Below, in pieces: positions 797 through 24,070 of a DNA stretch of 25,872 nt. The DNA is from a phage. Numbering within the stretch: the stretch's first letter is position 1; each line of letters begins with the position of its first letter. Below the pieces are notes generated by a model that did no database searches, was not told the origin of the DNA, and worked only from the letters and a program-made list of their open reading frames with translations. The stretch is taken from NCBI GenBank assembly GCA_020318295.1, contig GCA_020318295.1_4859.2; one strand, given 5' to 3'. The position numbers were made by a program, and so were the translations under genes.

Positions 797-850
797 TTTA
801 ATTGCTCCTTAATACATGACATAAGTTCTGATTGAAACGTAAATTTCAGA

Positions 851-878
851 GGTTCACTGAGATAACATCTATCTGAAA
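851..878 (-). promoter_or_regulatory. Conserved promoter-like motif P1 (minus strand TTTCAGATAGATGTTATCTCAGTGAACC)
   Basis: One of four near-identical copies of the core TTTCAGATAGATGTTAT; sits just after a terminator and about 80 nt upstream of the ATG at 796. Confidence 0.45.
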
Positions 879-12329: not shown

Positions 12330-12383
12330 TCTCTTAATTCCTCTTTACGTGGGTTGTTTCACATAAGTTAGTGGACTGATGTA

Positions 12384-12425
12384 AATAAAAAGGGACCTCC
12401 TCACCCGTGGGCAAGGAGGCGGGCC
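12384..12425 (-). terminator. Intrinsic terminator
   Basis: GC-rich stem cctcct/aggagg with extensions, followed by CCCTTTTTATTT on the minus strand; abuts the stop at 12426. Confidence 0.55.
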
Positions 12426-16674: not shown

Positions 16675-16730
16675 TGTAATGCCCTCAAAAGGTATTGCTG
16701 TCACAACATGAGGATAATGCGTAAAAAGAC

Positions 16731-17844: not shown

Positions 17845-18210
17845 CTACATTACTGCAGAAGGTTTACGTGCCATGACTTTAAGTCCTGTTTCTCGTACCC
17901 GGATAGGACAGTTGTTCATGTAATCGATGCATGATTCAATTTTAAAGCTATGACGACATTTACCGTTGATAGAACGGTAGACGATTTCGTAATTCAGGCG
18001 CAGTGTATCAGCAACCCGCATCAATGTTTCGATAGTCACGGCCTTCTCACGTTCATTTTTAATCGCAGATATTTGTGACGGTGAGCAGCCTACTAATAAC
18101 GCAATGTCTTTCTGCGTAACGTCCTTCGCAGTGACACGAGTAATAATGTAAGAAAGACGAACCAAAAACGCTTTCTTTGCCAACACAACGGTTTGATGTT
18201 TAAAACGCAT
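17845..18210 (-). CDS. XRE-type helix-turn-helix transcriptional regulator (121 aa)
   Basis: TQKDIALLVGCSPSQISAIKNE fits the HTH_XRE pattern; AAGGAG 8 nt upstream; first gene downstream of promoter motif P3. Confidence 0.6.
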   Translation of the reverse strand: MRFKHQTVVLAKKAFLVRLSYIITRVTAKDVTQKDIALLVGCSPSQISAIKNEREKAVTIETLMRVADTLRLNYEIVYRSINGKCRHSFKIESCIDYMNNCPIRVRETGLKVMARKPSAVM

Positions 18211-18260
18211 TAGAATACTCCTTTAGATTAATAGTCGATTAGAGAGTTTAGTAGTAACTC

Positions 18261-18285: not shown

Positions 18286-18329
18286 TTTAGTGGACTGGAA
18301 GCAAAAAGCATAAGACTGTTCCGATCTGT

Positions 18330-18366
18330 AAAAAAGACAATACCCTCTTACCCGAAGGTAAGAGGG
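18330..18366 (-). terminator. Intrinsic terminator
   Basis: Perfect 10-bp stem ccctcttacc/ggtaagaggg (18343-18352 and 18357-18366) with a 4-nt loop (TTCG on the minus strand), followed by a T-run. Confidence 0.75.
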
Positions 18367-18996: not shown

Positions 18997-19058
18997 TTTA
19001 TTCTTCCCCAAAAGTTTAATTAATTGTAGTGGTGTCACAATATAGCGACCAAACGTAA

Positions 19059-19094
19059 AGAAAAAAATAAAACAGGCACCCCGAAGGATGCCTG
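19059..19094 (-). terminator. Intrinsic terminator
   Basis: Stem caggca/tgcctg around a loop containing CCTTCGG on the minus strand, followed by TTTTATTTTTTTC. Confidence 0.6.
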
Positions 19095-19107: not shown

Positions 19108-19866
19108 TTACTCGATAGCCTTGCGGTTCTTCATTTCTGGTGTCCAGGTGTGCTCAATCCATGCTTCGATGACCGGCTTGATGCCCGGACTTTTGAAGAA
19201 TGCATTTAATGACGGCCATTCCCCTAACGCGTACTTGTTAGTGAAATTGAGCGACATTACACTGAAGCCTTCGCGTTTGTTAAACAACGCAGAAGGGGCC
19301 AAGGAATAAGACAACATGGCCTGCGGTGTATCTGATTCAGGACGCAGCAGTGTCATGCGGCGGGTGACACGCAGTTCAATATCGTTGAAGTTAGCCCGGA
19401 GGTCTTCTTTAAATTTGACACTGCGGAAGAAACGATTTCCTGTTTCGGATGCTTTATTTACCAATCGCTCGGTTTGCATCACGTCTTTAAAATACGCATT
19501 GATGCATTCTTCAATGAAGACATAGCGTGGTGCAGCTTCACGCAGTGCTTCTAAGTCGAACTCTTTCCACGCGGGGATGAGTTCAGGCTTACGGGCGATG
19601 TGTTTAAAGAACATCCTGGCTGAGACTTCACGCAGTGCTTTCAGCAACCCGCGAATAACATCTTCCCGCGTTGCGTTAGTTGCGAAGAACTCAGTCGTGC
19701 CATGTACAACGGTACCGCCTGTTTTAGCGCTGATGAGCTTATGCTCTATCATAATCGGCATCCCGCCCTTACCGATCATCTCTTCGTTATACAAAAATAC
19801 ATAACGATATTCGCCACAGGCAGTGGGGACGGACAGGAACTCTTTCTTCGTAGTATTAACAGTCAT
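19108..19866 (-). CDS. Hypothetical protein (252 aa)
   Basis: Monocistronic unit with promoter motif P4, a long structured leader and its own terminator. Confidence 0.6.
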   Translation of the reverse strand: MTVNTTKKEFLSVPTACGEYRYVFLYNEEMIGKGGMPIMIEHKLISAKTGGTVVHGTTEFFATNATREDVIRGLLKALREVSARMFFKHIARKPELIPAWKEFDLEALREAAPRYVFIEECINAYFKDVMQTERLVNKASETGNRFFRSVKFKEDLRANFNDIELRVTRRMTLLRPESDTPQAMLSYSLAPSALFNKREGFSVMSLNFTNKYALGEWPSLNAFFKSPGIKPVIEAWIEHTWTPEMKNRKAIE

Positions 19867-19957
19867 GGTATTTCTCTCTTAGTTTAAGTTGGTGAGTTTT
19901 AACCGACTCACAACGGCTTCTAGCATATGCTAAGGATGAAACGTAAATTTTGTACGT

Positions 19958-19984
19958 CTCCCTAAAATAATATCTATCCGAAAA
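19958..19984 (-). promoter_or_regulatory. Conserved promoter-like motif P4 (minus strand TTTTCGGATAGATATTATTTTAGGGAGACG)
   Basis: Variant core; the downstream TTTTAGGGAGA resembles the initiation region of single-subunit phage RNAP promoters (from memory). Confidence 0.4.
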
Positions 19985-20017
19985 ACAATAGAGTCGACCC
20001 ACTCCCGAAGGAGTGGG
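19981..20017 (-). terminator. Putative intrinsic terminator (weak U-run)
   Basis: Stem cccactcc/ggagtggg with a 4-nt loop (TTCG on the minus strand); the T-run is separated from the stem by 7 nt. Confidence 0.4.
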
Positions 20018-20023
20018 TATAAC

Positions 20024-23470: not shown

Positions 23471-24070
23471 TCATAATAAGCACAAGCTCTCAAGCCACAG
23501 ATGTCCTTCAAGCGCATGGTGGTAACAAGGAATACCACACTGCTTAGCGTATTTTACGCCCATTGCAGTACCGCCGGTCGGATTACCTTGTTTATCTAAA
23601 GGCGCAGAGTAATAGACTGCGTCTACAGGCGTTGCTAAATCATCGCCCATAATTATATTCAGATTACGCCCGTGAAGCGCCCAGGCGAACTCCTGGAGCT
23701 TTTCTGGCGCGGGATGAAGCTTACCTACTATCTCACGATAGCGGTCATCCTGAGGGATTACACGGAACTCTACGTTGGGATTCTGTTTCTTGAGCCAGAG
23801 CTTTTTCTCATCGGGTAGGTAACAAATGAACTCATCATCCCACACCACTTTCTTGCCGGTATCTTGGTCGATTGTATTCGCCCACTGTCGGGCAAATCGG
23901 AATTGCAATTGGTCTGGACCACACCAGCAGCCGCCAGAGGAAAAATGAATCGTGTAATCTTTGGCGTGCAGCGCATTAAACCCACGTAACAATCGCATGT
24001 ACATTTCAGACATGGTATCTTCATCAGTCTTCCGAGAACCGATTACCGCAATTTTATAAATCTTTTTCAT
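23471..24070 (-). CDS. DprA/SLOG-like Rossmann-fold protein (199 aa)
   Basis: N-terminal YKIAVIGSR followed by FSSGGCWCGPD and a C-terminal GGTAMG resemble the DprA/Smf-LOG (SLOG) pattern from memory. AGGAGG 7 nt upstream. Confidence 0.6.
   Translation of the reverse strand: MKKIYKIAVIGSRKTDEDTMSEMYMRLLRGFNALHAKDYTIHFSSGGCWCGPDQLQFRFARQWANTIDQDTGKKVVWDDEFICYLPDEKKLWLKKQNPNVEFRVIPQDDRYREIVGKLHPAPEKLQEFAWALHGRNLNIIMGDDLATPVDAVYYSAPLDKQGNPTGGTAMGVKYAKQCGIPCYHHALEGHLWLESLCLL

Follow-up and report, generated by a model that had tools for sequence, protein, structure and literature searches.

A putative second promoter of the phiKZ middle type nested in the leaders of gp167 and gp141 in a Salmonella phage close to SPN3US

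Organization of the gp167 and gp141 leaders

The DNA analysed here (the window) is a stretch of 25,872 nt of phage sequence (GenBank assembly GCA_020318295.1, contig GCA_020318295.1_4859.2), which between positions 18000 and 21000 is 99.6 % identical to the Salmonella jumbo phage SPN3US (Seoulvirus, phiKZ-related) and whose long open reading frames are all on the minus strand. The subject of this work is the leader of a gene for a 252-aa hypothetical protein, gp167, and its relation to the leader of gp141, with which it shares an exact 14-nt box; both are read here on the coding strand. The box, together with the centre of a palindrome that follows it, probably corresponds to the two elements of a 'middle' promoter of the phiKZ type, nested 36 nt downstream of the putative early transcription start. 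The features of both leaders are, in the order of transcription:

19997-20018, minus strand: terminator-like hairpin ACCCACTCC-TTCG-GGAGTGGGT, read from the sequence, directly after the gp168 stop codon (20026-20024)
19967-19983, minus strand: conserved core TTTCGGATAGATATTAT, putative early promoter of gp167 for the virion RNA polymerase (RNAP), from motif copies and layout
19960, minus strand: putative early transcription start G, 6 nt past the core, by analogy; the GA found here is invariant in the four window copies
19938-19960, minus strand: predicted 5′-terminal hairpin of the early transcript, GAGACGUA-CAAAAUU-UACGUUUC, whose 3′ arm and part of whose loop lie inside the box
19937-19950, minus strand: 14-nt box, AAATTTACGTTTCA on the coding strand, exact match
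19942-19947, minus strand: TTTACG, upstream hexamer of the putative second promoter, from motif enrichment at a spacing of 14 nt (N14)
19928-19941, minus strand: 14-nt spacer of fixed length and free sequence, varying among 11 orthologous leaders while the flanking elements are kept
19924-19927, minus strand: TATG initiator with G19924 as putative +1, from the fixed 14-nt spacing and the phiKZ analogy
19921-19932, minus strand: lineage-specific 12-bp palindrome, TAGCATATGCTA, with the TATG initiator at its centre
19892-19911, minus strand: conserved leader hairpin GTGAGT-CGGTTAAA-ACTCAC, at +14 to +33 of the second transcript and +50 to +69 of the early one
19108-19866, minus strand: the 252-aa gene, RefSeq ACQ60_gp167, with a Shine-Dalgarno-like AAGAGAG at 19880-19874
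917-892, minus strand: terminator hairpin of the gp141 leader, read from the sequence
862-878, minus strand: early core TTTCAGATAGATGTTAT of the gp141 ('P1') leader, with putative +1 at G855
833-846, minus strand: second copy of the 14-nt box, with TTTACG at 843-838
820-823, minus strand: TATG initiator of the putative second gp141 promoter, with G820 as putative +1 and a 24-nt leader to the ATG at 796
796-464, minus strand: gp141, the 'P1' gene, from the RefSeq annotation

The terminator-like hairpin of gp168 is followed by a T-rich tail (19996-19981), and its stem has changed bases and retained pairing in the Machinavirus orthologs (CCCACCC-TTCG-GGGTGGG). The gp167 protein did not match any Pfam family and is unrelated to that of gp141, so a duplicated gene plus leader was rejected as the source of the shared box.

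The core, TTTCRGATAGAT, is present in four copies in the window, every one of them intergenic, and its relaxed form (GATAGATRTTAY, GA[TC][AT][GT]AT[AGT]T[TCA]A[TC]-N6-G/A) in 20 non-coding sites of SPN3US. The virion-RNAP early promoters of AR9, phiKZ and phiR1-37 have a conserved AT-rich element-(6N)-G+1 layout (PMC5312081, PMC7598289); likewise, the element found here is AT-rich, conserved over about 10-13 nt, repeated, and followed by N6-G/A. By analogy, we regard the core as an early-promoter-like element, with putative early starts at G19960 for gp167 and G855 for gp141. Given such a start, the box would occupy about +10 to +24 of the early transcript.

The shared box and the palindrome compared with chance

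A previous inspection of the letters of this DNA (the sequence-only reading) had pointed to the 14-mer, to the palindrome and to an inverted repeat. The 14-mer, TGAAACGTAAATTT on the plus strand, does occur exactly at both places given, 833-846 and 19937-19950, and the 12 bp at 19921-19932, TAGCATATGCTA, do form a perfect palindrome; of the inverted repeat, ACTCAC was correctly placed at 19906-19911, and GTGAGT is at 19892-19897 instead of 19893-19898. The distance from the end of the core, defined in this analysis as GATAGATRTTAT, to the box is 16 nt in the gp167 leader and 15 nt in that of gp141, near-constant as had been proposed, with a difference of 1 nt. Nine 14-nt words are repeated in the window, compared with 1.8 in shuffled sequences; four of the nine overlap within one repeat, the shared early-promoter core, and two overlap within another, and a repeated 14-mer alone is for this reason weak evidence. 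What makes this 14-mer non-random is its occurrence after the same core, with a near-identical offset, in two leaders, and the idea that it is a functional-looking element and not a chance repeat holds. The window contains six perfect 12-bp palindromes, compared with 6.6 in shuffles.

In the whole SPN3US genome (240 kb, the scope of all genome-wide counts given here), the 14-mer has only two exact copies and its near-matches are at chance level, with four at up to two mismatches (3.4 expected) and 27 at up to three (33.7 expected); the box as a whole was therefore rejected as a regulon motif.

A bipartite motif with a fixed 14-nt spacer recurs upstream of SPN3US genes

A part of the box does recur. 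Of its 14 bases, nine (AAATTTACG) are the consensus of a putative promoter class defined by the hexamer TTTACG and a TATG or TGTG placed 14 nt downstream; with the G of TATG as +1, AAATTTACG spans -26 to -18 and the hexamer -23 to -18. SPN3US contains 11 TTTACG-N14-TATG sites, compared with a mean of 0.59 and a maximum of 4 in 100 Markov shuffles, and none at spacings N9-N13 and one at N15. Nine of the 11 are within the non-coding fraction, which amounts to 15,281 bases or 6.4 % of the genome. When one mismatch is allowed in the hexamer there are 27 sites (9.1 expected), 18 of them at least partly non-coding, all these in sense orientation to the next gene and most situated 44-130 nt upstream of its start codon.

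The slot 14 nt past the 28 non-coding TTTACG contains TATG in nine cases and TGTG in six, and no preferred word is found in the same slot past the 209 coding TTTACG. With either initiator allowed, TTTACG-N14-T[AG]TG is present at 18 sites, compared with 1.4 in shuffles, and any other spacing between 8 and 20 nt yields only 0-2 sites; 15 of the 18 are intergenic, all 15 sense to the next gene. A profile anchored on intergenic sense TATG showed T-T-T-T-A-C enriched at -24 to -19, with ACG occupying -20 to -18 in 12 of the 61 sites (counted by hand), and no conservation downstream of the initiator. Additionally, TTTACG is the top upstream hexamer once T-runs, Shine-Dalgarno sequences, terminator loops and the early core are excluded (19 sense, 7 antisense), and TATG is enriched 1.5-fold in upstream regions on the sense strand and not on the antisense strand. 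The TGTG initiator is often TGTGAC. These counts describe a genome-wide, sense-oriented class upstream of many genes, as expected of phiKZ-type middle promoters; the SPN3US members often come right after a terminator. AAATTTAC(G/A) is found also upstream of gp001 and gp201, and further class members precede gp080, gp051 and gp039.

Four further members are intergenic in the window, each just after a terminator hairpin and T-run:

19036-19059, minus strand: TTTACG-N14-TGTG upstream of the thymidylate kinase gene (tmk), from the motif scan
18309-18332, minus strand: TTTACA-N14-TATG upstream of the helix-turn-helix (HTH) gene, preceding an early core (18285-18269) rather than following it
16702-16725, minus strand: TTTACG-N14-TGTG upstream of the GNAT gene (gp162), from the motif scan
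12362-12385, minus strand: TTTACA-N14-TATG upstream of gp156, from the motif scan

The box is not a signature specific to leaders with the early core, since its conserved part, AAATTTACG, recurs with TATG in places without an early core and sometimes upstream of one. A fixed core-to-box spacing was likewise rejected as a general rule, because the putative second promoter exists without an early core (tmk, gp162, gp156) or upstream of one (HTH gene, gp190).

Several other SPN3US sites with these motifs are worth describing. An exact TTTACG-N14-TATG site heads a 541-nt stretch without annotated gene (SPN3US 143745-144285), and its TATG sits in an inverted repeat with 10-bp arms. Another class site (L002:2817-2840) precedes, by about 90 nt, an RNA gene with the annotation tRNA-OTHER. 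Two divergent genes, one of them annotated as a virion structural protein, have overlapping TATG motifs on opposite strands (158704/158712; L005:8690-8725), 27-33 nt upstream of the respective genes and without the TTTACG element; these may be back-to-back late-type promoters.

Conservation in related phages and mosaic boundaries

An alignment of the gp167 leader with the gp141-type leaders of SPN3US and of the Erwinia phages pEa_SNUABM_29 and phiEaH2 leaves TTTACG and the TATG 14 nt further on as the only sequences common to all. Similarly, TTAC(G/A) and TATG are retained around a variable 14-nt spacer in 11 orthologous gp167 leaders belonging to three genera (Seoulvirus, Machinavirus, Erskinevirus). 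Phages ChrisDB, pEa_SNUABM_4 and phiEaH2 have an additional gene that separates the gp167 ortholog from the early promoter, and in them TTTACG-N14-TATG stays directly upstream of gp167, suggesting that the second element acts independently of the early core. A search in IMG/VR for more orthologs returned only SPN3US itself.

Conservation extends to distant proteins: the phiEaH2 orthologs of gp167 (gp024, 27 % protein identity) and gp141 (gp045, 26 %) both keep the motif, which in the leader of the latter is GAAATTTACG-N14-TATG. In 50 kb of phiEaH2, TTAC[GA]-N14-TATG is found four times at N14 and never at spacings 8-13 and 15-20. The orthologous site of tmk in this phage is TATACG-N14-TGTG, 56 nt upstream of the gene; phiEaH2 also has a site similar to that of gp162 (TTTACA-N14-TGTG, the same 10 nt upstream) and one similar to that of gp156, upstream of gp033, the genes being putative counterparts. 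At the compared sites, those of tmk and of these two neighbouring genes, the spacing and the choice of TATG or TGTG agree between SPN3US and phiEaH2. The A/G choice at -2 thus appears to be conserved gene by gene, and it might set timing or strength.

The region is also mosaic, with boundaries that fall at terminator-promoter cassettes. Phage SPFM4 lacks gp167 and its leader, the gp168 terminator being joined to the tmk promoter; EC001 combines a leader 96 % identical with a gp167 allele only 50 % identical, the change occurring at the Shine-Dalgarno sequence; and three phages contain the extra genes mentioned above. The distance from the gp167 TATG to the GTGAGT/ACTCAC hairpin is 7-8 nt greater in Seoulvirus than in Machinavirus.

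One could argue from this mosaicism that the two leaders are copies of a single terminator-promoter cassette spread by recombination, in which the 14-mer is leftover identity without function. The similarity of the two regions does span terminator, core and TATG, the proteins encoded downstream show no relationship, the deletion, allele swap and insertions all fall at cassette boundaries, and the longer TATG-hairpin distance in Seoulvirus looks as if the promoter segment had been replaced. Nonetheless, common descent leaves two things unexplained: that some 15-25 unrelated intergenic sites have one hexamer, one spacing and one initiator in common, and that these persist, around a decaying spacer, where the proteins are only 26-27 % identical. 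We consider common descent an improbable explanation of the box when taken by itself. It is compatible with the promoter model and may explain the extra TTTCA, that is, the five bases of the box that lie outside the consensus and are common only to the gp167 and gp141 leaders; the identity of these five bases may be due to chance, T-bias or shared ancestry, and cassette exchange may have contributed to it.

Structure of the leader transcripts

The 94-nt early leader of gp167 is predicted to form three hairpins (minimum free energy -20.6 kcal/mol, z = -3.0), in agreement with the proposal that it is structured. Two of these look real from comparison of the orthologs. The GTGAGT/ACTCAC hairpin is 100 % paired in seven distinct orthologous sequences, with AU/CG/UA and UA/CG exchanges, as opposed to 24-57 % in slid controls, and it stays with gp167 when another gene is inserted upstream. 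The 5′-terminal, 8-bp hairpin of the early transcript is kept in the Machinavirus orthologs with other stem bases (GAGATAAC...GTTATCTT). Stable hairpins right at +1/+2 were found in 11 of 20 putative SPN3US early transcripts, compared with 10 of 60 control segments. On the contrary, the gp141 leader has no significant fold (z = +0.64), and structure cannot consequently explain the shared box. Comparison with Rfam yielded no family for the gp167 leader, the single chance match, of 24.8 bits where the gathering score is 43, being sub-threshold and on the wrong strand, and no match for the gp141 leader.

The box could still have been conserved for a role in the transcript, where it might, for instance, supply one arm (the 3′ one) of a 5′ hairpin that stabilises the RNA, or bind a protein or small RNA. 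In favour of this possibility, the box provides the 3′ arm of the 8-bp hairpin of the gp167 early leader, Machinavirus preserves this hairpin through compensatory changes, and 5′ hairpins are common in early leaders. The gp141 leader, with an identical box, cannot however form the same hairpin; the hairpin sequence differs in Machinavirus, where TTTAC-N14-TATG is kept separately just past it; and in ChrisDB, SNUABM_4 and phiEaH2 the element is present without an early start closely upstream. Together with the lack of an Rfam match, this makes an RNA-level role of the box unlikely: the 5′ hairpin itself is real, yet the sharing of the box needs another explanation.

Some features of these leaders were noticed in passing. 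The loop of the 19892-19911 hairpin is nearly invariant (CGGUUAAA; CGGGCAAA in phiEaH2) and the hairpin travels with gp167 across three genera; on the opposite strand it reads TTTTAACCGACTCAC, resembling TTTTAACCGACTATCAC of the gp211 leader. The 5′ hairpins of early leaders are often GAGAGUUA...UAACUCUC, for instance at window positions 18262-18242 (HTH leader) and 19960-19938.

The palindrome and the HTH protein

The palindrome had been proposed as an operator for the nearby HTH protein, and this proposal found no support. The protein itself, gp165, is of the HTH_3/Cro-C1 type, is found in many enterobacterial and Aeromonas jumbo phages, and is 100 % identical in the six SPFM phages compared; gp167 and its leader are absent in SPFM4, whose sequence was read, and blastn coverage suggests the same for the other SPFM phages. 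The palindrome occurs once in the SPN3US genome, and the Machinavirus and Erskinevirus orthologs have a non-palindromic sequence at its position. Dyad arms of at least 5 around the initiator are present in two of 26 class members (7.7 %), compared with 5.5-7.8 % of controls, and dyad symmetry at the start site was accordingly rejected as a feature of the class.

A repressor, possibly gp165, binding the palindrome with or without the box and thereby controlling the 252-aa gene is consequently a very unlikely explanation of these sequences. A perfect 12-bp palindrome between early promoter and start codon is the kind of dyad-symmetric site that a Cro/CI-type repressor would bind, and a genuine HTH_3/Cro-C1 type protein is encoded about 1.7 kb away. 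Against this, the palindrome is unique in the genome, 12-bp palindromes are at chance number in the window, it is lost in Machinavirus and Erskinevirus orthologs that retain the HTH gene, and it is thus neither conserved with the regulator nor repeated at regulated promoters; moreover, gp165 is unchanged in the SPFM phages, of which at least SPFM4 lacks the gp167 leader, start-site dyads are no commoner in the promoter class than in controls, and the box has no further near-copies. We regard the palindrome as lineage-specific and in all probability incidental. Separately, an AATACG-N14-TATG site that precedes a MazG-like gene has its TATG in the middle of a 20-bp palindrome (GGGTGTCCATATGGACACCC, SPN3US ~200919-200938).

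Comparison with known promoters

The middle promoters of phiKZ have the motif 5′-AAanTTACc-3′ centred at about -24, and two of them, P62M and P78M, also have an appropriately placed TATG (PMC4666361); we took this motif (Ceyssens 2014) as cited in Yakunina 2015 (PMC4666361) and in a 2020 review. Late promoters of phiKZ consist of T(-3)ATG(+1), with transcription starting at the G of TATG, and likewise at P62M and P78M by the authors' statement (PMC4666361). The SPN3US 9-mer AAATTTACG (AAAATTACG in MET_P1 and EC001) fits all upper-case positions of AAanTTACc, in both leaders, and it would lie about 24 nt upstream of the start, with TATG, if the start is assumed at the G. P78M, read directly, is AAAATTACC-N14-TATG, with a gap to TATG identical to that of the SPN3US sites. 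In both phages the sites precede non-structural genes and perhaps an RNA gene (tRNA-OTHER in SPN3US); in 201phi2-1, middle motifs are conserved and a middle promoter drives a Leu-tRNA (PMC11512511). There are also differences: the phiKZ motif was described as weak, with TATG in only two promoters, whereas the coupling of hexamer, spacer and initiator in SPN3US is strict; TGTG is a frequent alternative in SPN3US, and the last base of its motif is G/A instead of C. With the late promoters of phiKZ the SPN3US class shares the TATG initiator; however, those lack a conserved upstream element, and in SPN3US the hexamer at -23 to -18, 14 nt upstream of the initiator, is the most conserved part, so that the leaders do not fit the late type.

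The structure of the phiKZ non-virion RNAP (nvRNAP) with a promoter shows TATG bound by the beta-like GP123, and backbone contacts of the sigma-like GP68 from -17 to -24 (PMC12809450). The position of the hexamer coincides with the GP68 contacts, which we take by analogy as a lead and not as a test.

Genes of AR9 with early and late promoters in tandem are expressed continuously (PMC5312081, PMC7598289). The arrangement resembles that proposed here, in that two phage-polymerase promoters of different classes serve one gene and the early layout is element-(6N)-G+1; the late motif of AR9, AACA-(6N)-TA/G, differs in depending on template-strand uracil and is unrelated in sequence to the SPN3US motifs.

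In T4 middle promoters, a MotA box at -30 replaces the -35 element and the host RNAP acts with AsiA and MotA. These promoters are also bipartite, with an upstream box at a fixed distance from a start-proximal element, and are often downstream of early promoters, but SPN3US-type phages carry their own multisubunit polymerases and their start-proximal element overlaps +1.

Sigma-70 promoters have spacers of 15-19 bp. A host sigma-70 promoter, with TTTACG as a variant -35 element (four of six matches to TTGACA, and named as a -35 variant in the titles of papers on synthetic sigma-70 promoters) and TATG as the beginning of the -10 hexamer (TATGCT, four of six matches to TATAAT), was rejected as extremely improbable, because the 14-bp spacer is outside that range and no -35/-10 pair at 17 ± 2 bp exists, the TGTG variants lack the essential A2, no hexamer is conserved at or after the initiator, a consensus scan gave no sigma-70-like site at the gp167 leader, and phiKZ-type phages develop independently of the host RNAP (PMC7598289).

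Proposed model for gp167 transcription

The nested middle-type promoter is the reading that we favour. The data show the recurrence of the motif, its strict spacing, orientation and conservation, and its match to phiKZ P78M, and from these we infer where transcription starts, in which temporal class and by which enzyme. After the gp168 terminator, the virion RNAP would use the early promoter (core 19983-19967) and start at about G19960; 36 nt further on, a second promoter would comprise AAATTTACG at -26 to -18 and a TATG start at G19924, exactly 14 nt past the hexamer. In SPN3US numbering, the early starts of the two leaders would be G92559 and G109912, and the later ones G92595 and G109947. 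The gp141 leader would have the same tandem arrangement and, since nine of the 14 bases are promoter consensus, this arrangement accounts for most of the shared 14-mer. The gene gp167 would have two start sites, one used early by the injected polymerase and the other used later by a polymerase that the infected cell produces, with continuous expression as for the AR9 genes having early and late promoters. The later enzyme would be the nvRNAP reading TATG, with the hexamer read by its sigma-like subunit or by an added factor. The palindrome would have no separate role, and the downstream GTGAGT/ACTCAC hairpin, a real leader structure, would be part of both transcripts.

Several observations weigh against this model. 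Purified phiKZ nvRNAP does not transcribe middle promoters in vitro, a middle element inserted in a phiKZ late promoter lowers transcription 3-fold in vitro, and the late TATG of phiKZ tolerates no substitution in vitro (PMC4666361), yet TGTG is frequent in SPN3US. A 50-kb stretch of phiKZ has no excess of TTAC[CG]-N13-16-TATG (5 vs 4.4), and the element was not found by eye at P62M, upstream of gene 62. In SPN3US itself, the ATG of the exact site at 173074 is an annotated start codon, and the site may be a chance match; the TTTCA of the 14-mer is five further identical bases that the consensus does not explain; and the literature searched contained no 5′-end, time-course, transcriptome or promoter-map data for this phage.

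The second promoter type is known from phiKZ, and we found no description of it for SPN3US in the literature searched. The early-to-middle/late switch of phiKZ-like phages is partly understood, the purified nvRNAP of phiKZ reading the late TATG and not the middle promoters (PMC4666361, PMC7598289). A tentative generalization, which we regard as possible but doubtful, is that the enterobacterial phiKZ-like middle promoter is a sharply bipartite TTTACG-N14-T(A/G)TG signal that shares its start-site reader with late promoters, the beta-like subunit of nvRNAP acting on TRTG, while the hexamer at -17 to -24 is read by the sigma-like subunit or by a stage-specific factor. If true, the question of who reads middle promoters could be addressed in a Salmonella phage amenable to genetics, with a consensus that is defined and can be mutated. 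SPN3US already has amber-mutant genetics, and the strictly spaced, recurrent and conserved signal found in it and in its Erwinia-phage relatives supplies candidates for middle promoters and for tandem early-plus-middle units. For annotation, 'boxes' and palindromes in such leaders should be read first as nested promoters.

A second box in early leaders

Seven or eight leaders, mostly with an early core of the GATATATATTAC type, have a further box, (T)AATCGAC(T/C)AT(TA), that precedes the Shine-Dalgarno sequence by about 10 nt. It is found at 18231-18239 (minus strand) in the window and at SPN3US positions 23832, 65456, 94281, 114031, 167593, 223319, 224198 and 56336.

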